Shown piece after piece: positions 2,936 to 15,533 of a DNA stretch of 64,000 nt. The position numbers were made by a program, and so were the translations under genes. How positions within the stretch are numbered: position 1 is the first letter of the stretch; each line of letters begins with the position of its first letter. This DNA comes from Deltaproteobacteria bacterium (GTDB lineage Bacteria > Desulfobacterota > Binatia > DP-6). The stretch is taken from the NCBI GenBank assembly GCA_005879795.1, contig VBKJ01000127.1, positions 7,427 through 71,426 on the forward strand. Direction: 5' to 3'. The notes beneath the pieces are model-generated. The model searched no databases. It saw only the letters and a list, made by a program, of their open reading frames with translations, and was not told where the DNA came from.

Positions 2936-4966
2936 GTGCCTCCCGCGGGTCGCAGTCCCGGAGCCCGCGCGGCGCCGCGCGCGGCGCCGCCGCCCGCCTC
3001 CGCCGCGCAGCGGCGGCCGCTCCCGATCGCGCTCACCGCCGTGTGGTGGGTCGTCCTCGCCGTGCTGCTCGTGCAGAAGGGGCGTGCCCTCGAGCAGAAG
3101 ATCACGTGGTACCTCGCGGTCGACCAGTTCGGGTACGCGACGTTCGCGCACGACCTCCTGCGCGGCCGTGTCTTCCACGAGTGGGCGCCCGGCGAGGCGC
3201 TCAAGAGCCGGCTGCCGCCGCGCGCCGACGTCCTCGTCCAGAGCTACGTATGGGACCGCGGCCGAATCTACTCGCGCTATGCCCCGGGCTTCCCGATCCT
3301 GCTCGCCGGCTGGCTCGCGCTCTTCGGCGACGACAGTGCGCACTACCTGAACCCGCTCCTCTTCGTCGCCGTCGTCCTGCTGGTGATCGCCCTCCAGCGC
3401 CGGCTCTTCCACTCGCGGTGGCGGGCGCTCATGGGCGGCGCGCTCCTCGTGCTGTTCGCGGGCAACGGGTTCGCGGGCAGCAACGTGAATCTCTGGGGCC
3501 TCACGCTGACGCGCGACATCTCGGCGCACGCCGTCGCGCTCGCCGGGCTCGTGCTGCTCGTGCCGTGGGGCGCCCGCCGACTGGGACCGCGCCGCGCCGC
3601 GGCTGCGGGCCTGGCGCTCGGGTTCACCGTCTCGATCCGTCCCGACGGCGTGCTCTACCTCGTGCCGGCGACGCTGCTCGCTCTCGTACGGTGGCGGCGG
3701 GAGCGCGCGCGGGGCGGCGCCCTCGCGCGCGCGCTCGCCGCGGGCGTCCTCGGCGTCGCGCTCGGCGTCGCGCCCTCGCTCGCGTTCTACTGGGCCGCGA
3801 CGGGGAACCCGTTCCGGGCCACGCAGAGCATGGAAGCGCAGGATTTTCTCAGCGAGACGCCCCGCCCGGGCAGCGCGGTCGCCATGGCGGACGCCGGCGG
3901 CGTCAAGGTCGCCTATCCGCCCCAGGGCTGGCACGGCGGCACGGCGGTGCCCGTCCAGGGCGGCGGGCTCAGGCTCGCCAACTTCCCGCGCACGTTCGAG
4001 GAGAACTGGCAGCTCATCCAGGCGACGTACGGCCGGCTCTTCCTCGTGCTCGCGATGTGGGGAGCGTGCGTCGCGCTCGCGCTGCGGCCGATCGTCTTCC
4101 TGCTCACGGTGCCTTACGCGGCGCTCGCGGTGCTGCTCTACAGCTGCTGGACGACGCCGCAAATGCGCTACCTCATCGGCGCGAGCGTGCTCCTCCCGGT
4201 CCTCGTGGTCGAGGGCCTCATGGGGACCTTCGACCTGGTGCGTCTGATGGCCCGCCGGCGGGAGGAATGGCCGCCGGTCGCGTTTGCGGGCGGCATCGGC
4301 GTGGCGCTTCTCCTGGGCGTCGTCATGAGCCTCCACACGTCGCCACCGGCCGCCATGGCGTCGTCACATGTCGGCGCCTTCGTGCGGGCGATCCCCTGGC
4401 TCGTCCCCGGCGCTGCGGGTGTCGGCCTCCTCGTCGCGGCCGGCTGGCCCCGGCGGCGCGCGGCGGGGTTCGTCGCCCCGGTCCTCGGGCTCGTGCTCGC
4501 GGCCGCAGCGATCGCCGGCGATACGAGCACACTCGGGCGCCGGGCGAGGTTCCAGAAGCCCGAGATGACCTACGCGCGGGAGAACCTGAGGCGACTCGTG
4601 CCGCCGCACGCCGTCGTCATCACCACCGAGGACGTCGGCCGTCCGGCCGAGAACATCGAGTACTATGGCGGCATCCACGCGCTCTACCTGACCGACCTGA
4701 CGCGCTGGCGGCTCGGCGTGCGCGACGCCGCCGCGCTCCTGCTGCGCTCCGGTATGCCGCCGTATCTCTTCATCCCGTTCACGCAGCCGGACCGCGAGCA
4801 GATGCTCGCCGAGCTCGCCGAGTTCCAGGTGGAGCAGGCGGCCGACATTCCCGCGCCGCAGGCGATCGGCTACTTCGTGGCGGCGCCGTTCCACCGCGGC
4901 GTGCGGATGCTTCTCTACCGGATCTCCACGCCCGGCGCCGCAGACCGAGGCGCCCCTGACAGCTAA
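2936..4966 (+). CDS. Polytopic membrane protein, a GT-C-fold glycosyltransferase-like protein of the PMT/ArnT-like family
   Basis: More than 10 predicted TM helices. The first loop carries VDQFGYATFAHDLLRG...WDRGRIYSRYAPGFPILLAGW, typical of PMT_2/ArnT-type GT-C enzymes. It ends at TAA 4964-4966. Confidence 0.5.
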   Translation: MPPAGRSPGARAAPRAAPPPASAAQRRPLPIALTAVWWVVLAVLLVQKGRALEQKITWYLAVDQFGYATFAHDLLRGRVFHEWAPGEALKSRLPPRADVLVQSYVWDRGRIYSRYAPGFPILLAGWLALFGDDSAHYLNPLLFVAVVLLVIALQRRLFHSRWRALMGGALLVLFAGNGFAGSNVNLWGLTLTRDISAHAVALAGLVLLVPWGARRLGPRRAAAAGLALGFTVSIRPDGVLYLVPATLLALVRWRRERARGGALARALAAGVLGVALGVAPSLAFYWAATGNPFRATQSMEAQDFLSETPRPGSAVAMADAGGVKVAYPPQGWHGGTAVPVQGGGLRLANFPRTFEENWQLIQATYGRLFLVLAMWGACVALALRPIVFLLTVPYAALAVLLYSCWTTPQMRYLIGASVLLPVLVVEGLMGTFDLVRLMARRREEWPPVAFAGGIGVALLLGVVMSLHTSPPAAMASSHVGAFVRAIPWLVPGAAGVGLLVAAGWPRRRAAGFVAPVLGLVLAAAAIAGDTSTLGRRARFQKPEMTYARENLRRLVPPHAVVITTEDVGRPAENIEYYGGIHALYLTDLTRWRLGVRDAAALLLRSGMPPYLFIPFTQPDREQMLAELAEFQVEQAADIPAPQAIGYFVAAPFHRGVRMLLYRISTPGAADRGAPDS

Positions 4967-4974
4967 CTAACTAA
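4964..4974 (+). other. TAACTAACTAA, stop codons in all three forward frames
   Basis: TAA at 4964, 4968 and 4972 covers every + frame. It sits at the boundary between the GT-C gene and a low-GC islet. Confidence 0.6.
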
Positions 4975-5160
4975 CCTCGTAGCGCAGCCCGTGAAGAAGT
5001 CGAAGAGGCTGGGCGAAGAAGCCGCGCGACGGGGCGGGGGCGATCGTCGCCGAGGTTCCCGTGGTAGCCGCCCCGTCGCGGGCGCCGAGCGCGCGTCGAC
5101 GTTGGTCCGCGTGCTGGGTAAGTCAGCCAAGGGGGCGCGCATTCCGTGCCGAGATCCTTA

Positions 5161-5190
5161 TATGGTCATGCTTCATATGGTCATGCTTCA
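5161..5190 (+). repeat. Perfect tandem direct repeat, 2 x 15 bp (TATGGTCATGCTTCA)
   Basis: Read directly from the sequence. A second pair of 11-bp direct repeats (CCCGGGAACGC) lies at about 5227-5253. The region is low-GC, about 52%. Confidence 0.7.
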
Positions 5191-5448
5191 GGACCAAGCA
5201 TTCGGTTTTGCGGAGGAATCTCTCCACCCGGGAACGCCCTTCCCGGGAACGCTCTTCCGGTGGCTCCCTCGCGCAGAGTCTACAGCAAACAGACATCACC
5301 TGAACCCGGTATAGCCTACCGTCCGTGACATCTGCTAACTCTCACAGCGTGGAGCACTTCTCCGGGATGAGCGGCTGCGACAAATCGATCGTGAGGGAGG
5401 GTGGAGTTTCAGAGCGCGGGGCCCGCAGCGGGAGTGACCGGTGCTTTC

Positions 5449-5464
5449 CGAAGACATGTCTTCG
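5449..5464 (+). promoter_or_regulatory. 16-bp perfect palindrome CGAAGACATGTCTTCG, a candidate operator about 25 bp upstream of the peptide ATG
   Basis: Perfect inverted repeat seen in the sequence. It is followed by the consensus SD AAGGAGG (5478-5484), placed 5 nt before ATG 5490. Confidence 0.4.
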
Positions 5465-5489
5465 TCGCGAGGAGAAAAAGGAGGGTTAG

Positions 5490-5783
5490 ATGAGCAAGCT
5501 AGTCGTGGGTCTCGCAGGAATCGTGCTGGGGGTTGGTCTGTTGGTTTCGGCGGCGCGGGTGGTGTCCGCTGCCCCAGTGTGCGGTCATGGCCCATGCGGG
5601 GACGAGGTCGGGCAGTGCGGCCTCAGCGGTAAGGCCAGAGCAGCGTGCTTCAAGACTGCCATAGCCGCTTGCAAAGCCTCGCACGCGGCAGGCGGCTGCA
5701 CGTGCGCCGATCCGGGGTGCTTTACCTGCACCGGCGGTAGCGCATGCGTTTTCGCTTCGCCCTCGGGCGCGTTCCTCGAGTAG
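5490..5783 (+). CDS. Small secreted cysteine-rich protein, 97 aa. It has a signal peptide and 12 Cys plus several His in its roughly 70-aa mature part.
   Basis: Optimal SD and spacing. N-terminus MSKLVVGLAGIVLGVGLLVSAARVVSA. Mature part PVCGHGPCGDEVGQCG...CFTCTGGSAC. GC3-rich codons. TAG at 5781-5783. Confidence 0.7.
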   Translation: MSKLVVGLAGIVLGVGLLVSAARVVSAAPVCGHGPCGDEVGQCGLSGKARAACFKTAIAACKASHAAGGCTCADPGCFTCTGGSACVFASPSGAFLE

Positions 5784-5799
5784 CTACCTTCGTTCTCCC

Positions 5800-5831
5800 G
5801 TCGGGGGCGGGGTGCTGACCCCGCCCCCGAC
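5800..5831 (+). terminator. GC-rich hairpin, a probable intrinsic terminator without a T-tract
   Basis: GTCGGGGGCGGGG-tgctga-CCCCGCCCCCGAC is a perfect 13-bp stem, 17 nt after the peptide stop. Confidence 0.45.
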
Positions 5832-6092
5832 CTGGTGCGCGCTTCCGCGGTGCGGTCCAGCCTGCGCGAGAGGGGAAACGTGTTGGTTGTCGCGCGCCGC
5901 GCGTGAAGTTGCCGCCGCGCGAGCATGACGGAGCCAGAGGCCCTCCGTCCCGCCGTCAGTCCGAGCAGGGTGCGCCGGCCGCGCACGCCGAGCGACTCGC
6001 GGAGGGGGCGGTTTGGGGGACGATCCCTACGTTCGCCTGCCCGCGGGCGCGCGCACGAGCCAAGGTGAGCAGCTACTGACCTGCGGGCGCGA

Positions 6093-8351
6093 CTACTGGC
6101 ACAGGCACGTGGACCCGCTCAGCTGGCAGTGCAGCCCGCAGCCCGAACCGCATGTGGCCCCAGTGTTACACGTGCATGTCGAGGTGCAGCAGGAGGTGCC
6201 GTCGCACTGCTCCCCAGGGTCGACCTGGTGGTTCCCGCACAGGCCGAATCGCTGGGCGAACACGCCCTGATAGTTGCCGTCCTGGCCGTAGCTGTCCCAT
6301 GCGACCACGAACTTCCCGGCTGCGGCCGCGACCGCCGGGCGTCCCTGATCCTCGATGATGTAGCTGTTCACGCGGAACTCACTGGCCAGACGGCCACCCT
6401 GGGCGCCGAAGCGCTGCCCGAAGACCTCTGTCCCGATGCAAGCTTCCTGGCCGGGTCCGTCCCAGGCCACGAGGAACGTGCCGTCCGAGTTCATCGCTAC
6501 TGCCGCGTCCTTCTGGGGATTCGCGGTGAAGCTGTTCACGAGGAACTCGCTCCCCTGGGGCGTCCCCGAGCTGCTGTACCGCTGGCCGAAGATGCCCGCG
6601 CCGTCACCCGCGCCCGCACCCTCCCACACCACCACGAAGTCGCCCGCCCCGTCGGCAGCCACGGCCGGATGCGTTTGATTGGAGGCCGTGGTGGTATTCA
6701 CCCGGAATTCACCCGCGTTACAACCGCCTCTGGGCGTCCCCGCGCTGTCGTAGCGCTGCCCGAAGATGCCGTAGCCGCTGCCGTCCTGTGCGGCGCTGTG
6801 CCACACCACCACGAAGTTGCCCGCGCCGTCGGCCGCCACCGCAGGGGAACCCTGAACGCCGGTCGTGTAGGTGTTCACCCGGAACTCACCACCCTGCGGG
6901 GCCCCCGCGCTGCTGTATCGCTGGCCGAAGATGCCGGCGCTGTCGGTCGCGCCGGGGCCGGCCCAGACCACCTTGAAGTTGCCGAGACCGTCCACCGCCA
7001 CCGCCGGAGTCTGCTGCACCCCGGTCGTGTAGGTGTTGACCCGGAACTCGCTGCCCTGCGGGGTGCCCGCGCTGTCGTACCGTTGGCCGAAGACGCCGGC
7101 GGCGTCGCCCGGGCCGGCTCCGTCCCACACCACCAGGAAGTTTCCGCCGGGGCTCCGCGCCACGCGAGGGTTGTCCTGATAGCCCGTCTTGTACGTGTTC
7201 ACCGCGAACTCGGTACCCTGCCGCGTCCCGGTGCTGTCGTAGCGCTGGCCGAAGATACCGGTGCTCGGGTACCCGTCGCCATTGCCTGAGCCACTCCATA
7301 CCACCACGAAGTTGCCCGTCGCGTCGGCCGCCACGGCCTGAGGATAGCCCTGCACGCCGGTGGTATACGTGTTCACCTGAAATTCGGGGCCGGCGGGGAC
7401 GGACCCGCCGTCGCACGCGTCTCCCACCCCGTCGTGATCGCTATCCACCTGACTCGGATTGTAGACGTTCGGGCAGTTGTCCAGCGGACACGTGTTCGCC
7501 GGAAAGCCTGGATCGCCGAAGCCGTCGCCGTCCGAGTCCTGGCACGTGTCACAGGCGTTCCCGATGCCGTCATGGTCGGTGTCCGCCTGGTCGGGGTTCC
7601 GGATCGAGCGACAGTTGTCGATGCAATCGGCGACACCGTCCCCGTCCGTGTCCCCGCCGCCGACGGCAAAGTAGCGGACCGCCGTATTGGTGAGCGTAAA
7701 GGGGCTCGTGGGGTTGCCGAACCTCCACCCCACGCCGACCGTACCGTCGGCGTTCTCGATTCCGGCAGCCGCCGTCTGTACGCCACTCCCCGCACTCGAG
7801 TATTGGACCTGGATCTCGTGGCGGCTTTCGTAGAGGATGATCTCCCAGGTTGTCTTGGGATTGCCCGTGAACAGCGGCACACGGTCGAACTCGACGATGA
7901 AGCGCCGGTTGGGGGCGGTGCCCAGCGTCTGGTAGTAGATGGCTCCGAAACTGCTCGGGTCGAGATCGGCCCAGAGCCCCGCGACGTCCACGTTCGGGCA
8001 TCCTGGGCTCGGGAGTGGAGTCTGGCCGGTCGGCGCGCTTCCTTCGCCGCCAAAGGTGATGAACCCGTTGCTCGAGACGAATACCTGCGAATTGCTGATC
8101 CCGTAGTAATTGAAGGTGAAGCCGAGCGGCAGCGCGGCGCTTTCCTCATCGTCGCGGAGCACGAGGAGCGTGCCGGTCTGTGAGATGTCGACGAAGGAAT
8201 ACGTCGGCGCATAGGCGTCGAGCGGCGCGATCGTGTCCGAGAACCTGTAGCAGCCCGCGTTGTCGGGCCCGCCCACGGCGGAGGCCGGCCGCGGCGATTC
8301 AAGGACGCCGAGTAGAACGATCAGAGTCGCGGCCGCAGTCCAGTCCCTCAT
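6093..8351 (-). CDS. Large secreted repeat protein, 752 aa. It has a signal peptide, thrombospondin-type-3-like Ca-binding repeats, 7 tandem repeats of about 47 aa, and a C-terminal Myxococcus-type cysteine-rich repeat.
   Basis: N-terminus [25 protein letters not shown]. DxDxDGxxDxxD repeats ([14 protein letters not shown]...[12 protein letters not shown]). Repeat unit [40 protein letters not shown]-terminus [18 protein letters not shown]. Confidence 0.8.
6250..7365 (-). repeat. Intragenic tandem repeats, about 7 x ~141 bp, encoding the ~47-aa units
   Basis: Visible periodicity in both the DNA and the translated sequence. Confidence 0.6.
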
Positions 8352-8655
8352 CTGCTCTCCGATCGTCCCCCAGGGAACGGCCTTCGGCTCGCTACGCCAA
8401 GCTCGGCGGGGGTCTTCGCATCCGCTTGAGCGTCCTCGATCGCAATCTCCTGGGCGCAGGCCCCCCGGCCCCAGGCGTCTCCTGGAAACCGCCCGGTCAC
8501 CCGCGCACCGACAGGTGCTCGTCTACCGCGGGCTGTTCGCGCCCGTCAATCGAACAAAGACGGGAGGGCGGTGGCGAAGGCCATAGAGGGTGCAAGGCGC
8601 TCCTCCGCGACCTCGTCTTCTCGACCCGTTTCGACTACGGGGGTGTGGCAAAGCG

Positions 8656-10566
8656 ATGCTCGCCGCCGCCGCGCTCGCCGGGATCGTGTTCGCCGTTTAC
8701 GCGGCCGGCGCCTGCCCCACGATCTATGTCGGTGACAGCGGCGACCTGGTCACCGCGGTTCACGTCTTGGGCATCCCGCATCCGACCGGCTACCCGCTCT
8801 ACGTGCTCCTCGGCAAGCTCTGGTCGGTCCTAATTCCCGTGGGCACGGTGGCCTGGCGGATGAGCCTCTTCAGCGCCGTCTGCGCCGCAGCGGCTTGCGG
8901 GGCATTGTATCGGCTCTGCCGGAGCCTGGCGCTCCACCCGGTTGCGGCGGCCTTCTCGGCGCTCGTCCTGGCGTTCAGTCCGAGCTTCTGGTCGGAGGCG
9001 AACGTCCAGAGGGTATACGGCCTGGGGGCGCTGTTCGTCGTACTGGCCACGACGGCCGCTTGGCGCTGGCAGGTCCGCCGGGACGGGACGAGCCTCGCGT
9101 GGGCATCGTTCCTGTGCGGCTTCGGGGCCGCCAACCATGCCTTCATGGCCGTCTACGCACTTGCCCTCGGCGGTCTCGTACTCACGGCGGAGCCGGCCAT
9201 CCTGCGCTCGCCGCGGCGCGTCGTGGCGGCGGGCGGCGCGTTCTGCGCCGGGCTGCTTCCCTACCTCTACCTGCCGTTGCGCGCGCGGGCGCATCCGCCG
9301 CTCGCTTGGGGCGACCCGCAGACGCTCGGGGGATTCTTCAGGGTGGTCTCGCGCCGGGAGTTCTGGGGCCGTGCGTGGCTGGAAGGTCCGGCCGACCTGC
9401 CGGTCATCGCGGCGAACTACCTCGGGAGCTTCCGCGCGGAGCTCACCTGGGCCGGCGTCGCCCTCGCGCTGGTGGGGACGGCGGCCGGCCGCCGCCGGCG
9501 CTGGCCGGTGCTGCTTCCCGGGCTCGTCATGGCCGGGAACTTCGGGCTGCTGGCCGCTCATGGCTCGCGTCATGACCTCTTCACGTGGCACCGCTACTAC
9601 ATCCCGTCTTACGTGATGGCGGCGTTCCTCGCAGGGCTCGGAGCCCAGGTAGTGCTCGAGCGGCTGCCTGCGATGCTCCGCTTCCTTCCGCTGCTGGTCC
9701 CGGCTCTCCTGCTGGCGCTGGGGTGGCGGACCTTCGACCGGAGCCGCTACCGGATCGCGGAGGACTTCGGCACCGCGGTCCTCCAATCCCTACCCCCGGG
9801 CGCTCACCTCGCTGGGGCGGACGACAACGTGCTCTTCACCCTCATGTATCTTCACCTCGTCGAGCGGCGGCGGCCGGACGTGGACCTCATCATGCAGGGC
9901 GTGGGCGGCATGGAACTGCCGCCGCTGCGCTTCGATCCGGAGAACGACCCGCTGTTCTTCACCCATCACCCCAACTGGGATCATCCGTTGCTCGACGTCG
10001 TGCCCGTGGGACTCGTCTTCCGGGTGTGGCCAGCCCGCCGGCCGCCTCCGCCCGCGGCGGCCACTGCGGAGGCGCTGGACGGCGAGCGCGATCCGCGGGT
10101 GCCGAAGGACGATCTGACGCGAAGCCTGATCGGCCACTTCCACTACATGCGCGGGGTCACCTTCGCGCGCGGCGACTGGCCTCGCGCCCGGCGCGAGTTC
10201 GCGCTCGCCGGCGCGACCGCGGACGACGACGACGTGCTCTTCTACAACCTGGGTCTCGTTTTCCAGCGCAACGGGCTCCTCGAGGACGCTCTCGCCGCCT
10301 TCCGGCGCTCGCACGCGATCAACCCCCGGCACCTGGCGAGCCAGAGACGGCCACGTGCCACCGACCGGGTGGCGGAGCTCACGGCCGAGGAGAAACGGCT
10401 CGAGGCGATCGAAGAGGATCTGGTCCGCGACCCGACACTCCTCCCGCTCGCACCCGACACGCCTGCCTATCACCGGCAGCTGGCGACGCTTCTCGAGCGG
10501 CAGGGCGAGCCCCTGGCCGCGCACGGCCACCGCCTGAAGGCTCTCGAGATCGACGCCGGTGCTTGA
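8656..10566 (+). CDS. DUF2723-family (TMEM260-like) polytopic membrane protein with C-terminal TPR repeats. It is a putative GT-C-type protein glycosyltransferase.
   Basis: Signature YVGDSGDLVTAVHVLGIPHPTGYPLY (the D..E/D....Y.LG..HPPG.PL motif of DUF2723). Multiple TM helices. TPR-like C-terminus (FYNLGLVFQRNGLLEDALAAFRRSHAINP). The start is taken at MLAAAALAG. Confidence 0.7.
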   Translation: MLAAAALAGIVFAVYAAGACPTIYVGDSGDLVTAVHVLGIPHPTGYPLYVLLGKLWSVLIPVGTVAWRMSLFSAVCAAAACGALYRLCRSLALHPVAAAFSALVLAFSPSFWSEANVQRVYGLGALFVVLATTAAWRWQVRRDGTSLAWASFLCGFGAANHAFMAVYALALGGLVLTAEPAILRSPRRVVAAGGAFCAGLLPYLYLPLRARAHPPLAWGDPQTLGGFFRVVSRREFWGRAWLEGPADLPVIAANYLGSFRAELTWAGVALALVGTAAGRRRRWPVLLPGLVMAGNFGLLAAHGSRHDLFTWHRYYIPSYVMAAFLAGLGAQVVLERLPAMLRFLPLLVPALLLALGWRTFDRSRYRIAEDFGTAVLQSLPPGAHLAGADDNVLFTLMYLHLVERRRPDVDLIMQGVGGMELPPLRFDPENDPLFFTHHPNWDHPLLDVVPVGLVFRVWPARRPPPPAAATAEALDGERDPRVPKDDLTRSLIGHFHYMRGVTFARGDWPRARREFALAGATADDDDVLFYNLGLVFQRNGLLEDALAAFRRSHAINPRHLASQRRPRATDRVAELTAEEKRLEAIEEDLVRDPTLLPLAPDTPAYHRQLATLLERQGEPLAAHGHRLKALEIDAGA

Positions 10567-10597
10567 CCGCCTCCGCGCCTCGTCCTACCGGAGTGCG

Positions 10598-12556
10598 ATG
10601 GGCATGCGCTACCTCCTGGTGCTGGCCGCGCTCGCCTCCTTCGCCCTCGGCTGCGGCGCGAACCCCTCGACGGAGCGCATCGTCGTGCTCGGCCTCGATG
10701 GCGTCGACCCGCGGATCGTCGATCTGCTGATGGCCGAAGGCAAGATGCCGAACTTCGCCAGGCTCCGGCAGGAGGGCGCCTACGGGCGCCTGCTCAGCAG
10801 CGAGCCGATGCTCAGCCCGATCCTCTGGACGACCATCGCGACGGGCAAGCCCCCGCAGGAGCACGGCATCGGGCACTTCGTGGCGGTGAACGAGAAGACC
10901 GGCGAGCAGTTGCCCGTGACCAGCCAGATGCGCCGAGTGAAGGCGATCTGGAACATCCTCTCCGACGCCGGCCGGCGCGTGGCCGTGGTCGGTTGGTGGG
11001 CCACGTGGCCGGCGGAGACCGTACGCGGCACGATCGTCAGCGACCACGTCTGCTATCATTTCTTGCTGAGCGACGGGGCCGCAGAGGAAGGGCGCGCGCC
11101 CGGTATCACGTTCCCGGCCGAGGCGCAGGCCGAGCTGGCCCCCCTGATCCGCCGCCCGGGCGACGTGACGCTCGCGGAGGCGGCGCGCTTCGTCCACGTC
11201 GGCGCGGAGGCCTTCGCCCGTCCCTTCGCCTTCAGCGACGACCTGAGCCAGTTCAGGTGGGCGCTGGCGACGGCCGAGAGCTACCGGCGAATCGGCCTGC
11301 ACCTCTGGGAGCGCGAGCGACCGGACCTCCTCATGGTCTACGTCGAGGGCGTCGACTCGACGTCGCACCTGTTCGGACACCTCTTCCGCGCCTCGGGACT
11401 CGCGGGCGAGCTCGCGGCGCAGCAGGAGCACTACGGAGGGACCGTCGAGGAGATGTACCGCTACGCCGACGGCCTCGTCGGCGACTTCACGCGGGTGCTC
11501 GACCGCCGCTCGACCCTCGTCGTGCTGTCCGATCACGGCTTCGAGCTCGGCGCCGTGCCGGATGATCCCAGCAAGACGCGCGACATGCGCCGCGTGAGCG
11601 AGCGCTATCATCGGCGCGAAGGCATCGTCTACCTCTACGGGAACCGCGTGAGGCCCCGCGGCCGCCTCGATCAGCCGAGGCAGCTCGACGTGACGCCGAC
11701 GCTGCTCGCGCTCGCCGGCCTCGCACCCGCGCGGGACATGCCCGGCCGGGTGTGGACGGAAGCGCTCGACGTGAACGCGGAGCCGCCGTCGGTCGCCAGC
11801 TACGAGACAGAACGGTCCCGCGGGGGTGAGGGCGCGACCGACGCGGCCGTCGATCCCGCCATCCTCGAGCGGCTGCGCAGCCTCGGCTACCTGGGCGCGC
11901 GCTCACCGGAGGGCGACCGCAACCTCGCTGCCCTGCACTTCGAGGCCGGGCGCTATGCCGAGGCCGTGGAGGCGTACGAAGGCCTGGTGCGCCAGCACCC
12001 CGAGGACAGCGGCCTGCAGACGAGCCTCGCGGGCGCGCTCGGGGCGCTCGGACGACTCGATGAGGCCCTCGAGCACCTCGACGTGGCGCTCCGGCTCGAC
12101 CCCATCAACCCCGAGGCTCACCACAACCGGGCGGTCATCTTCGAGCGGCAGGGAAAGCGCGAGGCGGCGAGCGAGGAGTACCGCACGGCCCTTCGTTATA
12201 ATCCGCAGTACGAGCCGTCGCGGGAGGCGCTCATCCGTCTGACGGGATCGGCGCGTGTGAACCAGCCCCAGACCGACGCGGAGAAGCTCGCCGCCGCGCT
12301 CGCAGAGCAGGCGAGCCAGGCGGCCCGCCGGGGGGATTATCCGGCGGCCCTGAAGGCGCTCGACGAGGCCGCGCGCATCGCGCCGCGTTACGCTCTCGTG
12401 TACCAGTATCGCTCCAATGTCGCGTACCTCATGGGCGATCGGCAGGGCGCGATTGCCGCACTGCGCAAAGCCCTCGAGCTCGAGCCGGACAACGCGCTCT
12501 ACCGGACCAACCTGCAGCGCCTCGAACAGCCCCACCCCGGGTTCAATCCCGGATAG
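10598..12556 (+). CDS. Lipoprotein of the type-I phosphodiesterase / nucleotide pyrophosphatase (AlkP) superfamily with C-terminal TPR repeats
   Basis: Lipobox LAALASFALGC. Catalytic motifs VVLGLDGVDP, TIATGKPPQEHGI, YVEGVDSTSHLFG and VLSDHGF. TPR repeats at the C-terminus. Confidence 0.75.
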   Translation: MGMRYLLVLAALASFALGCGANPSTERIVVLGLDGVDPRIVDLLMAEGKMPNFARLRQEGAYGRLLSSEPMLSPILWTTIATGKPPQEHGIGHFVAVNEKTGEQLPVTSQMRRVKAIWNILSDAGRRVAVVGWWATWPAETVRGTIVSDHVCYHFLLSDGAAEEGRAPGITFPAEAQAELAPLIRRPGDVTLAEAARFVHVGAEAFARPFAFSDDLSQFRWALATAESYRRIGLHLWERERPDLLMVYVEGVDSTSHLFGHLFRASGLAGELAAQQEHYGGTVEEMYRYADGLVGDFTRVLDRRSTLVVLSDHGFELGAVPDDPSKTRDMRRVSERYHRREGIVYLYGNRVRPRGRLDQPRQLDVTPTLLALAGLAPARDMPGRVWTEALDVNAEPPSVASYETERSRGGEGATDAAVDPAILERLRSLGYLGARSPEGDRNLAALHFEAGRYAEAVEAYEGLVRQHPEDSGLQTSLAGALGALGRLDEALEHLDVALRLDPINPEAHHNRAVIFERQGKREAASEEYRTALRYNPQYEPSREALIRLTGSARVNQPQTDAEKLAAALAEQASQAARRGDYPAALKALDEAARIAPRYALVYQYRSNVAYLMGDRQGAIAALRKALELEPDNALYRTNLQRLEQPHPGFNPG

Positions 12557-12565
12557 CCCGTAGGC

Positions 12566-13513
12566 ATGGCGGTGTCGCATGACCAGGCCAGCGCCGCCGG
12601 GCGGCCGCTCACCGCAGCCGTCGTCGTCAGCTGGGAGGGCGGGGCGACGACCGACCGCTGCGTCGGGTCGCTGCTAGCGCAGGAGAGCGCCCCGGACGCC
12701 GTGCTGGTCGTCGACAACGCCTCGAGTGAGGCCGAACGGGCGAGGCTGCGCGAGGTCTGGGGCGCCCGCGTGCGGCTCATCCTCCTCGATGACAACCGGC
12801 AGTTCGCGGGCGGACTGAACGCAGGCGCGCGCGCGGCCTTCGCGGCTGGTGCGGAGCGCGTCCTGCTGCTGAACAACGACACGGTCCTCGCGCCCGACGC
12901 GCTCCGCCGGCTCGGGGCGGCGCTCGACGCGGCGCCGGCCGCCGGCATCGCGGGCCCGCTGGTCGTGTACGCGGACCAGCCGGGCCGCATCCTCAGCGCC
13001 GGCGAGCGCCATCTCCTTCCGCTCCTCTGCGTACCGCGGACGCTCCTCCGGCATCGACCCGGCGGCGCGACCGGGGCCTATCCGGTCCAGGGCGTGATGG
13101 GCTGCGCGATGCTCGTGACGCGCGCGTGCTTCGAGGCGGTCGGCGGCTTCTCGGAGGAGATCGAGGTCTACTACGAGGACGTCGACTTCTGCGTCGGCGC
13201 GCGCGCCTGCGGCTTCGGCGCCGTCGTCGAGCCGGGTGCCGTCGTGTACCACGATGGGTTCCGCGGCTTCGTGGCCGGGCTCACGCCGTGGGCGGCGTTC
13301 CTGAAGGCGCGCAATCCGTGGCTCCTCGTGCGGCGCCGTGGCGGGCCGGGTACGTGGCTCACGTTCGTGCCGACGTACCTGGTGATGATCGGCGCGAGCG
13401 CCACGCTCTACGCGGTCCGCGGACGCGGCGACATCAGCCGCGCGCTGGCGCGCGGCGCCCTCCACGGGCTGCGGGCCGCGGTCGGGGGCCGGCGGACCCC
13501 GGCGGGTCCATGA
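12566..13513 (+). CDS. Family-2 glycosyltransferase
   Basis: Contains VVVDNASSE...LNAGARAAF...LLLNNDTV and a GT-A DxD-type core. Its stop overlaps the next gene start (ATGA). Confidence 0.8.
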   Translation: MAVSHDQASAAGRPLTAAVVVSWEGGATTDRCVGSLLAQESAPDAVLVVDNASSEAERARLREVWGARVRLILLDDNRQFAGGLNAGARAAFAAGAERVLLLNNDTVLAPDALRRLGAALDAAPAAGIAGPLVVYADQPGRILSAGERHLLPLLCVPRTLLRHRPGGATGAYPVQGVMGCAMLVTRACFEAVGGFSEEIEVYYEDVDFCVGARACGFGAVVEPGAVVYHDGFRGFVAGLTPWAAFLKARNPWLLVRRRGGPGTWLTFVPTYLVMIGASATLYAVRGRGDISRALARGALHGLRAAVGGRRTPAGP

Positions 13514-14643
13514 GGATCTGCTTCGTGAGCCAGCAGGTCGCGGACATCCGCACCGGGGTCGGCATGTACGCGAACGAGCTCATCCCGGCGGTGGCGGAAG
13601 CCGGTCACCGAACGACGCTCGTCGCCCGAGGGCGAGCACCCGGCTGGAAGGACGTCGACCACCACCCGGTGCCCGCGGTGCCGAGGGACCCGACGCCCGA
13701 GGGCTGGCTCTCCTTCGCCTGGATCGCGGCGCGCCGGCTCGGTGCGCTCGGCGGCGCGCGCGCCTTCGACGTGGTCCACTTCCTCGATGCCCGCGAGGCC
13801 TTGTTCGCGCGGCGCGCCGACGGCGCCTCGCTCGTCGGGACGGTACACGACTGCTATCTCGCCGCCGCGTCCCCCGACCTTTCGTACTGGCGCAGCCGCT
13901 ACAGCGACTGGGTGCGCCGCTGGGCCTACCATCGGCTGGCGCGCCGTCTCGAGCGAGCGGCACTTCGCAAGCTCGACGCGCTGATCGCCAACTCCCGCTA
14001 CGTCGAGCGCCAGGTGGGGGCGGCCTACGCGCTGCCGCCCCGGGCGCTGCGCACGATCTACCACGGCTTCCGCTTCGGCTGGGAGGCGCGGTCGGCTGGC
14101 TCGCCGAGCTCGGACGTGCTCTTCGTCGGCGCCAACTTCGAGCGGAAGGGGCTCCCCGGGCTCCTCCGCGCGCTCGCCCGCGTGCGCGAGCGCGTGCCCG
14201 ACGTCCACCTGCACGTCGCGGGCGACCACCCCTCCAGGCGCCACATGGAAGGCCTCGCGGGCGAACTCGGGCTCGCGGAGCACGTGATCTTCCACGGTTT
14301 CCTTCCTCGCGCCGACGTGGCGGCGCTCTATCGGGGGGCCGCCGTGCTGGCGCTTCCGTCCGAGGTGGAGGGCTTCGGCATCACGCTGATGGAGGCGATG
14401 CACTCGGGCGTCCCGGTCATCGCGAGCACGGAGGGGGGGAGCGCGGAGCTGGTGCGCGACGGCTGGAACGGGTTCCTGGTGGCGCCCGGCGACGTCGCCG
14501 CCCTGGCCGACCGGCTCCTCGTGCTCCTCACCGACGGGCAGCGGCGCGCGGAGATGGCGGCGAACGGACGCGAGACGGCGGGGCGCTACCCGCTCGCACG
14601 CATGGTCGCGGAGACGCTTGCCGTCTACCGGGAGGTCGCGTGA
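13510..14643 (+). CDS. Family-1/4 (GT-B) glycosyltransferase
   Basis: N-terminus MRICFVSQQ. C-terminal EX7E region SEVEGFGITLMEAMHSGVPVIAS. Its stop overlaps the next gene start (GTGA). Confidence 0.85.
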   Translation: MRICFVSQQVADIRTGVGMYANELIPAVAEAGHRTTLVARGRAPGWKDVDHHPVPAVPRDPTPEGWLSFAWIAARRLGALGGARAFDVVHFLDAREALFARRADGASLVGTVHDCYLAAASPDLSYWRSRYSDWVRRWAYHRLARRLERAALRKLDALIANSRYVERQVGAAYALPPRALRTIYHGFRFGWEARSAGSPSSDVLFVGANFERKGLPGLLRALARVRERVPDVHLHVAGDHPSRRHMEGLAGELGLAEHVIFHGFLPRADVAALYRGAAVLALPSEVEGFGITLMEAMHSGVPVIASTEGGSAELVRDGWNGFLVAPGDVAALADRLLVLLTDGQRRAEMAANGRETAGRYPLARMVAETLAVYREVA

Positions 14644-15533
14644 GCCGCATCAGCGCGGTCGTCGTCCACTGGCGCGACCCGGCCGCGACGCTCGCCTGCC
14701 TCGCGAGCCTCGCCCGGGAGCCCGAGATCGACGTCCTGGTTGTCGACAACGGCTCGCGCCACCCGCTCGCCGTGCCGCCCGGCGTCCGCTGCGTGCGGAG
14801 CGAGGAGAACCGCGGCTACGCGGGCGGCGCGAACCTCGGCATCCGCGACGCGCTCGCCCGCCGCGCAGAGGTCGTCCTCCTCCTGAACGACGATGTGCGC
14901 GTTCATCCCGGCGCGGCGTGCTCAGCCCTCCGCGTGCTCGACCGGGATCCGCGCGTCGCGGCCGTCGGCGCGAAGGTCCTCGCGCGCGAGGATCCGCAGC
15001 GGCTCTGGCTCGCGTGGGGCCGGGTGACGTACCGGCAGAGCCTCGTCGCCCTCTGCGGGGCAGGAGAGCTCGACGGGCCCGCCTACGCCGAGGAGCGGGA
15101 CGTGGAGTGGATCGCGGGGTGCGCCATGTGGCTCCGCGCCCGTGCGCTCGCCGCGGTCGGCCTCTTCGACGAGGAGTTCTTCGCTTACCACGAGGAGGTG
15201 GAGTGGTGCGCGCGGGCGCGCGCGGCGGGATGGCGTGTCGTCTACTGCCCGGACGCCGTGGTGACGCACGGGGGACGGGGGACGTCGAAGGCCGCCGCGT
15301 CGGTGCGTGTCCGCAAGTACTTCACGGCCCGGAACATGGTCCTCTACGCACGCCGCCACGCGAGCCCGGTGCAACGCGCGAAGCTCGCCTGCTTCCTGGT
15401 CGGCACGCTGCCGCTGCAGCTCCTCTGGAACCTGCCGCGCGGGCGCGCGGGCGAGGTCGTGCTGAAGATGCGCGGCGTGCGCGACGCCCTCACGGGCCGC
15501 CGCCCGCCGTTCGAGGCGCTGGGGTTGCGGTGA
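14640..15533 (+). CDS. Family-2 glycosyltransferase (rhamnosyltransferase-like)
   Basis: Contains AVVVHWRDP...VVDNGS...NRGYAGGANLG...EWIAGCAMWLR. Confidence 0.8.
   Translation: MSRISAVVVHWRDPAATLACLASLAREPEIDVLVVDNGSRHPLAVPPGVRCVRSEENRGYAGGANLGIRDALARRAEVVLLLNDDVRVHPGAACSALRVLDRDPRVAAVGAKVLAREDPQRLWLAWGRVTYRQSLVALCGAGELDGPAYAEERDVEWIAGCAMWLRARALAAVGLFDEEFFAYHEEVEWCARARAAGWRVVYCPDAVVTHGGRGTSKAAASVRVRKYFTARNMVLYARRHASPVQRAKLACFLVGTLPLQLLWNLPRGRAGEVVLKMRGVRDALTGRRPPFEALGLR

Follow-up and report, generated by a model that had tools for sequence, protein, structure and literature searches.

Human TMEM260 is a protein O-mannosyltransferase that acts on the IPT domains of plexins, cMET and RON, and structures of it are available (PDB 9rql, 9rqm and 9rqn). 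Its gene is a human disease gene (SHDRA syndrome), and the enzymology was worked out only between 2023 and 2026. Two further systems employ membrane glycosyltransferases of the GT-C class: TMTC1-4 O-glycosylate cadherins, and TfpW of Pseudomonas aeruginosa O-glycosylates type IV pilins. The TfpW study reportedly established that bacteria do use the design in which a GT-C domain is combined with tetratricopeptide repeats (TPR). ArnT, also a GT-C enzyme, and EptA, a member of the alkaline-phosphatase (AlkP) superfamily, both decorate lipid A. The bacterial relatives of TMEM260, which carry the domain DUF2723, are to our knowledge uncharacterised. Here we describe such a relative in a 64,000-nucleotide stretch of contig VBKJ01000127.1 (assembly GCA_005879795.1, Deltaproteobacteria bacterium, Binatia; positions 7,427 to 71,426 of the forward strand), referred to below as the window, together with two neighbours: a TPR-containing phosphodiesterase lipoprotein and a secreted beta-propeller protein.

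The unit that is conserved between genomes is best read as a periplasmic two-enzyme protein-modification module with the propeller protein as its prime candidate client, a reading to which we give a probability of about 0.5. The module lies within a 12.6-kb region (2936-15533) in which a first-pass annotation had recognized six glyco-related genes and taken them for one system. All six genes are present, at or near the places where they had been put, and the same gene set emerged from a list of open reading frames (ORFs), from searches against Pfam and NCBIfam, and from genes called independently on an identical scaffold of a metagenome (ENA ERZ28573640). The idea of one system found no support: the genes fall apart into three modules in relatives, so that the region appears to be three separate gene modules side by side, of which only the TMEM260-like gene and its phosphodiesterase partner are widely conserved.

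The TMEM260-like glycosyltransferase

The DUF2723 gene (8656-10566, + strand) encodes a 636-aa protein that matches PF11028 with 87.0 bits against a cut-off of 24.2 (E 1.7e-24). Residues 6-418 match residues 31-469 of the human TMEM260 structure (9rql_A, E 1.2e-30). The protein combines an N-terminal polytopic GT-C module with a periplasmic lobe made of a Rossmann-like part and TPR. The TPR_2 and TPR_1 matches (E 1.7e-5, just under the curated cut-offs) cover residues 551-581 of the 658-aa ORF that starts at 8590, equivalent to about 529-559 of the 636-aa protein, and TPR Pfam matches are found in most DUF2723 homologues. These results bear out the original assignment of a DUF2723 protein with TPR at this position. 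The signature quoted for it, D..E....Y.LG..HPPG.PL, holds only approximately, the window having D..D....H.LG..HPTGYPL. The protein also gives a sub-threshold match to PMT_2.

Six residues are essential in human TMEM260 (D52, H67, R264, Y267, R355 and D441), with D441 serving as the catalytic base; the TPR domain is where the acceptor peptide binds, the substrates are extended chains, and the donors used by enzymes of this type are monosaccharide donors (bioRxiv 10.64898/2026.03.17.711096). In a HMMER alignment these six positions correspond to D27, H42, R233, F236, R313 and D390 of the DUF2723 protein, all of which are invariant in an alignment of 20 homologues. Five of the six essential residues are therefore kept, the catalytic base included, and Y267 is replaced by Phe. 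Judged by its sequence, the protein is a bona fide relative of TMEM260 with its functional residues intact. The enzyme is very probably active, using a polyprenyl-phosphate-sugar.

The phosphodiesterase partner

The next gene (10604-12556, + strand) starts 37 nt downstream and encodes a 650-aa protein with a match to PF01663 of 111.1 bits (cut-off 23, E 1.2e-31). Numerous TPR_2, TPR_11 and TPR_1 matches crowd the C-terminal third. The N-terminus carries a lipobox (FALG-C) whose Cys is shared by 90% or more of 39 homologues, in agreement with the earlier description of a TPR-bearing lipoprotein of the type-I phosphodiesterase/AlkP superfamily. When the structure of phosphonoacetate hydrolase (PhnA, 3szy) is aligned to the N-terminal part, D32 corresponds to D29 and S71 to the nucleophile Thr64. 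Residues D32, S71, D251, H255, D310 and H311 are invariant across 39 sequences, and the DxxxH and DH motifs among them can be assigned to the metal sites by analogy. With both its metal ligands and a Ser nucleophile kept, the protein is predicted to be a catalytically competent periplasmic enzyme.

Conservation of the module

In a scan of one genome per species the DUF2723 protein had 128 relatives, and the best 80 of the 128 loci, with identities of 46-69%, were analysed. Most of these belong to Acidobacteriota (Thermoanaerobaculia and others), Binatia and metagenome-assembled genomes (MAGs) labelled Myxococcota or 'Deltaproteobacteria'. Every protein of the window was compared with these loci by tblastn. 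The phosphodiesterase-TPR protein is matched at 55-56 of the 80 loci and the propeller, within 10 kb of the DUF2723 gene, at 30-31, the counts varying slightly with the length filter. Where at least 4 kb of sequence is available on both sides (n = 51), the phosphodiesterase gene lies no more than 300 bp from the DUF2723 gene in 26 loci and no more than 4 kb away in 35. The two genes share a strand in 51 of 53 cases and occur in either order. They appear to be operonic and co-inherited, and the pairing extends over several phyla. It also holds among close relatives: where the DUF2723 protein is 88%, 72% or 70% identical to that of the window, the phosphodiesterase gene directly follows in all three. 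The closest relatives carry Binatia or 'Deltaproteobacteria' MAG labels, rather than the Myxococcota affiliation that had been expected, and the source is a contig from a soil-type metagenome.

The propeller genes of these loci form 34 arrays, 17 of which are situated inside the module or within 800 bp of it, compared with 5.4 expected (P 4e-6) under a null model of uniform positions within the same loci. We rely on this placement test over a gene-density test, in which the enrichment is only 2.7-fold (P 0.002) because tandem propeller arrays extend into the zone counted as 'far'. Typical arrangements are PDE>D>REP>, PDE>D>REP>REP>REP> and REP<PDE>D> (where D stands for DUF2723, PDE for phosphodiesterase and REP for propeller), and tandem arrays of 2-3 propeller copies are present at some loci. 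The adjacency recurs in Acidobacteriota, Binatia and Myxococcota, often with the propeller gene on the same strand and directly after the DUF2723 gene. A gene for a propeller or Cys-rich protein is adjacent or one gene away in the 88% and 70% relatives, and in the 72% relative a tblastn match to the N-terminus of the window's propeller protein lies just upstream. The suspected link between the DUF2723 gene and the neighbouring secreted repeat protein is therefore reproduced in many unrelated genomes.

Several loci hold additional membrane proteins. At six of them (L003, L010, L027, L028, L039 and L042; e.g., L027:11872-13938) the phosphodiesterase gene is separated from the DUF2723 gene by one for a second polytopic protein with TPR. 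This protein is distantly related to the DUF2723 family (hhalign probability 90%, E 1e-6) and has a VFDDAIF motif in the first loop, and such loci therefore have two TPR GT-C enzymes and a TPR phosphodiesterase. A polytopic protein of ~560 aa (c7) with no Pfam or NCBIfam match occurs at ten loci (L006, L007, L014, L020, L037, L041, L043, L049, L066 and L068; e.g., L014:11869-13551); in at least seven of these its gene immediately follows the DUF2723 gene, in two others it adjoins the phosphodiesterase gene, and some of these loci have no phosphodiesterase. In the 88% relative, a 459-aa Sulfatase-family (PF00884) gene separates the propeller and DUF2723 genes (L084 2718-4097, L085 2659-4038), which amounts to a second enzyme of the alkaline-phosphatase superfamily in the module. 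Apparent fusions of phosphodiesterase and DUF2723 proteins were rejected as ORF-calling artefacts in stop-poor, high-GC DNA; at the locus checked (L075) the tblastn matches start in different frames.

The secreted propeller protein

The gene for the 752-aa secreted protein (6093-8351, - strand) is divergent from the DUF2723 gene. Its product consists of a signal peptide, an N-terminal domain, thrombospondin type-3 repeats (TSP_3 match), a 7-repeat propeller and a Cys-rich tail. The propeller (residues ~318-705, 6237-7400, - strand) is built from seven repeats of 54-59 aa each. AlphaFold2 models this region as all-beta with ~4 strands per repeat, with a predicted local distance difference test score (pLDDT) of 85 and a predicted template-modelling score (pTM) of 0.89, and the top Foldseek match of residues 310-710 is the propeller of CylK (7fh7, template-modelling score 0.72), supporting a 7-bladed beta-propeller. 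The consensus of 222 repeats includes Q..PaVA.d..GnFVVVW.S....G.fGQRF. In the same repeats a blade loop carries the motif VNT-x-T-T, with Thr/Ser frequencies of 76%, 82% and 60%, so that each propeller presents seven copies of a Thr-rich loop motif. Neither Pfam nor NCBIfam offers a model for the repeat family, which gives more than 5,900 matches in many architectures.

The 752-aa protein of the window is 54-62% identical to its counterparts at L127, L084 and L085, where the flanking DUF2723, phosphodiesterase and ArnT-like GT-C proteins are 84-95% identical. This pattern points to rapid divergence or to replacement by a paralogue.

Proposed mechanism and alternative readings

Export signals or extracytoplasmic domains are present in the DUF2723, phosphodiesterase and propeller products alike. 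By homology with TMEM260, the GT-C domain of the DUF2723 enzyme would use a polyprenyl-phosphate-sugar as its donor on the periplasmic side of the membrane. The Rossmann-like/TPR lobe would hold the client as an extended polypeptide, and a Ser/Thr hydroxyl would be glycosylated as the client leaves the Sec channel. In the least certain step, the TPR phosphodiesterase would share these clients and attach or remove a phosphodiester-linked group, either on the protein itself or on its O-linked sugar. Enzymes that handle phospho-substituents include the PF01663-type glycosylphosphatidylinositol (GPI) ethanolamine-phosphate transferases and PptA/EptC, and by analogy with these the phosphodiesterase may add or remove a phosphodiester substituent. 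Secreted 7-bladed propeller proteins, the 752-aa protein among them, are the best candidate clients, with VNT-x-T-T as a possible acceptor. The GT2-GT4-GT2 genes and the ArnT-like GT-C described below would be recent neighbours with histories of their own, perhaps co-expressed with the module and standing outside the conserved mechanism. In its most specific form, the proposal is of a three-part periplasmic system, found in several phyla, in which a TMEM260-type GT-C and an NPP-type TPR lipoprotein place a sugar, possibly with a phosphodiester, on the blade Thr motif of propellers that leave Sec unfolded. All of these parts together we consider unlikely to be right.

A number of observations weigh against protein glycosylation of propellers. 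TMEM260 Y267, which contacts mannose, is a Phe here, and the sugar may differ. The TMEM260 sequon P-x5-P-x3-G-P-x2-[GA]-G-G-x2-[TS] is found in none of the 35 neighbouring propeller proteins, nor in the 752-aa protein or the 97-aa Cys-rich peptide of the window. Acceptor recognition would therefore differ from that of TMEM260; the missing sequon concerns acceptor specificity and not membership of the enzyme family. About 30% of the full-flank loci have no phosphodiesterase gene within 4 kb and about half of them no propeller gene within 10 kb, and the propeller family is so large that part of the adjacency could be background. No linked donor-synthase gene was seen at the DUF2723 loci or in the window. 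The chemistry of the phosphodiesterase is the weakest link, because the GT-C reaction needs no such enzyme and the role given to it here is a guess. Glycosylation by the module is itself read from homology and gene context.

Two other readings merit consideration, each of them doubtful. According to the first, the DUF2723 enzyme and the phosphodiesterase modify lipid A or lipopolysaccharide (LPS), a glycolipid or a wall polymer, and the propeller genes are bystanders. The pairing of a GT-C with an AlkP-superfamily enzyme does parallel ArnT/EptA (general knowledge); the pair is present at many loci with no nearby propeller gene, other PMT_2/ArnT-like GT-C genes often cluster around DUF2723, and the sub-threshold PMT_2 match of the DUF2723 protein would fit as well. 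Such a target is, however, at odds with the conservation of the catalytic base (D441, here D390) and of the Rossmann-like/TPR acceptor lobe, and with the presence on both enzymes of TPR domains, which typically bind peptides. Furthermore, the phosphodiesterase is a PF01663 lipoprotein that lacks a membrane domain, unlike EptA, and the propellers adjoin the module more often than chance allows.

The second reading accepts that the pair acts on proteins and denies that propellers are the substrate: they would be co-functioning secreted factors (lectins or enzymes), or fast-evolving surface proteins that settle at these loci. The size of the family, with many architectures unrelated to DUF2723, the resemblance of the propeller to CylK and to sialidase-like glycosidases, the low identity of the propeller next to well-conserved neighbours and the lack of the TMEM260 sequon are all consistent with it. 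It accounts less readily for the immediate adjacency in Acidobacteriota, Binatia and Myxococcota, often on the same strand after DUF2723, for the signal peptides in the neighbouring propeller proteins that were checked (that of the window and the L020 representative) or for the seven copies of a conserved Thr-rich loop motif. We retain the two-enzyme protein-modification module, with propellers as candidate clients, as the preferred interpretation.

The flanking genes

Upstream of the module, a gene at 2936-4966 (+ strand) encodes a 676-aa membrane protein with ~10 transmembrane segments. It has no Pfam match at E <=0.01, PMT_2 (PF13231) and PMT (PF02366) included, and no PDB sequence match with either a single sequence or a profile; PF13231 appears in only 11 of 120 homologues among the matches listed for it. 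The AlphaFold2 model, made with 38 homologues (pLDDT 85.7, pTM 0.87), retrieves only GT-C structures at Foldseek ranks 1-21, with ArnT (5f15) first (E 8e-10), followed by ALG12, AglB, STT3, DPY19, Emb, AftA and Pmt. D63, in the motif TWYLAVDQFGY, is invariant in the 38 homologues and lies just after the first transmembrane helix (28-54) of the model; we infer a catalytic role for it. By predicted fold alone, then, the protein is an ArnT-like GT-C from a family with no Pfam model. Of the PMT/ArnT-like GT-C postulated at this position, the fold and the conserved Asp in the first loop stand and the PMT_2 Pfam match does not. PMT_2 membership was rejected given the missing Pfam and PDB matches and an hhalign value of 4% against the DUF2723 family, as was a distant relationship to c7 (hhalign probability 5%).

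The ArnT-like GT-C had been regarded as a partner of the DUF2723 enzyme, but it is matched at none of the 80 DUF2723 loci. Its homologues of 47-54% identity occur, in five of five long contigs, in a fixed and different context with an Lhr helicase, a DsbA-like (thioredoxin) protein, DUF1302, a VKOR-DsbA fusion and VanZ, a set of genes not present in the window. This conserved context suggests an uncharacterised module that joins the GT-C to periplasmic disulfide formation. It also contains two proteins of 510-650 aa with no Pfam match (L122, L123, L124 and two further contigs). A relative of 84% identity has a different downstream gene, with neither Cys-rich peptide nor propeller after it. Only the 95% identical relative keeps the order of 186-aa hypothetical protein, GT-C, Cys-rich peptide and propeller; in this pair the propeller is 62% and the peptide 39% identical, the secreted proteins thus diverging far more rapidly than the genes around them. 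The hypothetical protein upstream (186-199 aa, + strand; 2168-2767, or 2207-2767 for the 186-aa form) has weak acyl-carrier-protein-like NCBIfam matches (E 2e-5, far below the cut-off) and is 90% conserved in the close relative L127.

The space between the two GT-C genes was thought to hold two large secreted proteins, and there is in fact one, the 752-aa protein, accompanied by a secreted Cys-rich peptide of 97 aa (5490-5783, + strand). The gene for the peptide has its own, strong ribosome-binding site and is followed after its stop codon by a perfect 14-bp GC hairpin (5800-5831). The ~70-aa mature part contains 12 Cys. The counterpart on the contig with the 95% identical GT-C is 91 aa long and 39% identical, sits in the same position and retains the C-terminal SPSGAFL, and the peptide appears from this comparison to be a fast-evolving secreted peptide. 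As a partner of the DUF2723 enzyme it can be set aside, with matches at 0 of the 80 loci. A lower-GC, non-coding stretch of 520 nt upstream of the peptide gene harbors two 15-nt tandem duplications, at 5160-5189 (ATATGGTCATGCTTC x2, exact) and 5227-5256 (CCCGGGAACGC[C/T]CTT x2), which may be regulator binding sites. No Rfam match to a structured RNA or riboswitch was obtained at E <=1 in this stretch (4967-5489) or in the divergent promoter region. A scan of 2-17 kb detected no sigma-70 promoters or intrinsic terminators, a result that is weakly informative at the ~70% G+C of the window.

Downstream of the module, 9 nt after the phosphodiesterase gene, begin three genes for soluble glycosyltransferases, all on the + strand: GT2a (12566-13513, 315 aa, PF00535/PF13641), GT4 (13510-14643, 377 aa, PF00534 with 147 bits, PF13439) and GT2b (14640-15533, 297 aa, PF13641/PF00535). 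The stop of GT2a overlaps the start of GT4 in ATGA and the stop of GT4 overlaps the start of GT2b in GTGA, both read directly as 4-nt overlaps; GT2b is 37% identical to GT2a, the two being paralogues. The genes, their overlaps and the operon-like spacing agree with the operon originally described, but its assignment to the DUF2723 system does not hold: GT2a and GT2b are each matched at 0 of the 80 DUF2723 loci and GT4 at 1, and the trio is absent beside the relatives whose DUF2723 protein is 88%, 72% and 70% identical. A metagenome scan with GT2a returned 35 contigs. GT2a is 66-78% identical in 30 other contigs, and every contig that shows both end genes has the order GT2-GT4-GT2. Near-identical copies of the window aside, at least 16 contigs have a GT4-type gene enclosed by GT2a (66-78%) and GT2b (59-70%); DUF2723, phosphodiesterase and propeller are absent from these, including 10 with more than 3 kb of upstream sequence. 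The usual companions there are another GT2, another GT4, an epimerase and a PMT_2-like membrane protein, and the DUF2723 and phosphodiesterase genes accompany the cassette only in contigs at least 98% identical to the window. Since it is found alone elsewhere and is absent in close relatives, GT2-GT4-GT2 appears to be an independent glycan-building cassette that became attached behind the phosphodiesterase gene very recently and in this lineage only.

The two GT2 proteins were also considered as polyprenyl-phosphate-sugar synthases of the Ppm1/GtrB/ArnC type. This found no support: they have no transmembrane segments and only a marginal PDB match, and their best NCBIfam models (MftF, rhamnosyltransferase and GlfT1-like) all score far below the cut-off. 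A 483-aa 'conserved' ORF (c2) next to the cassette is an Arg-rich antisense shadow ORF.

Beyond 15533 lie genes for an acyl-CoA dehydrogenase and a luciferase-like oxidoreductase. From 16 to 64 kb the window has a housekeeping and metabolic content, and among the 20 larger genes screened in that part none belongs to a glycan pathway. Neither an initiating phosphoglycosyltransferase nor a flippase was found in 2-16 kb or among these 20 genes, and Pfam and NCBIfam scans found no polyprenyl-phosphate-sugar synthase among the main genes of the window. The suggestion of a dedicated surface-glycan locus therefore fails, at least as a self-contained one. Nor does the region resemble a self-contained glycosylation island of the pgl type: the initiating transferase and flippase are absent from the screened genes and the gene set is not co-inherited.

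The notion that 2936-15533 encodes one pathway, in which GT2-GT4-GT2 build a lipid-linked glycan that both GT-C enzymes transfer to the repeat protein, the Cys-rich peptide or the surface, draws on the spacing of 8656-15533, which fits one operon (37 nt, 9 nt and two 4-nt overlaps), on the gene order kept in contigs identical to the window and on the adjacency of ArnT-like GT-C, Cys-rich peptide and propeller in the 95% relative, yet it is quite improbable given the near-absence of the trio from DUF2723 loci and from close relatives, the cassettes that occur alone with other glycosyltransferases, the unrelated neighbourhood of the ArnT-like homologues and the missing peptide and propeller in the 84% relative, the lack of an initiating phosphoglycosyltransferase or flippase among the screened genes and the use of monosaccharide donors by TMEM260-type enzymes (bioRxiv 10.64898/2026.03.17.711096). 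Gene clustering in a single window can thus over-state functional unity, three independently inherited modules having the look of one locus.

Comparison with known systems

A literature search with incomplete coverage found DUF2723 named only in the 2023 TMEM260 paper, and found neither a bacterial TMEM260-like system nor a phosphodiesterase partner. The GT-C plus TPR design is already known; what would be new here is a type of GT-C plus TPR O-glycosyltransferase with a new partner enzyme and a candidate class of clients. A well-conserved bacterial subfamily with its catalytic machinery intact, a partner enzyme and a candidate client makes TMEM260-type glycosylation in bacteria directly testable in a simple system, and the TPR phosphodiesterase is a pointer to a second activity that has no counterpart in the eukaryotic pathway. 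If the three-part system is real, it would give the human TMEM260 pathway its first counterpart in bacteria, with an undescribed partner enzyme and substrate class in addition.

For the propeller, CylK (7fh7) provides the best structural match and shares the 7-bladed arrangement. In contrast to CylK, to which it is 16% identical, the 752-aa protein belongs to a repeat family with no Pfam or NCBIfam model, and CylK-type catalysis is unsupported in it. The phosphodiesterase shares the metal-ligand motifs and the position of the nucleophile with PhnA (3szy), a member of the NPP branch (PF01663). It differs in having Ser for Thr, insertions, a lipoprotein anchor and a TPR domain of ~230 aa, and only ~100 residues align.

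As a pair, the two enzymes are comparable to ArnT with EptA and to Neisseria PglL with PptA, where a membrane glycosyltransferase and an AlkP-superfamily enzyme share one periplasmic target (general knowledge). However, EptA and PptA are Sulfatase-family (PF00884) enzymes with membrane domains of their own and not TPR lipoproteins (general knowledge). TMTC1-4 and TfpW are similar in a different respect: they too combine a polytopic GT-C with an extracytoplasmic TPR domain, use lipid-phosphate-sugar donors and carry out domain- or protein-specific O-glycosylation, although they belong to other GT-C families than the DUF2723 enzyme. The TfpW gene, moreover, lies beside that of its pilin substrate and has no phosphodiesterase partner; the locus in the window has no pilin gene.

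The closest described relative remains human TMEM260. Unlike it, the DUF2723 enzyme is bacterial and periplasmic, with ~25% identity and an invariant Phe in place of Y267; the candidate clients lack the human sequon, and the phosphodiesterase lipoprotein has no described counterpart in the human pathway. The two proteins nevertheless share PF11028, homology at E 1e-30 that extends over the 11-transmembrane-helix GT-C module and the start of the luminal lobe, the residues D52, H67, R264, R355 and D441, and a C-terminal TPR domain.

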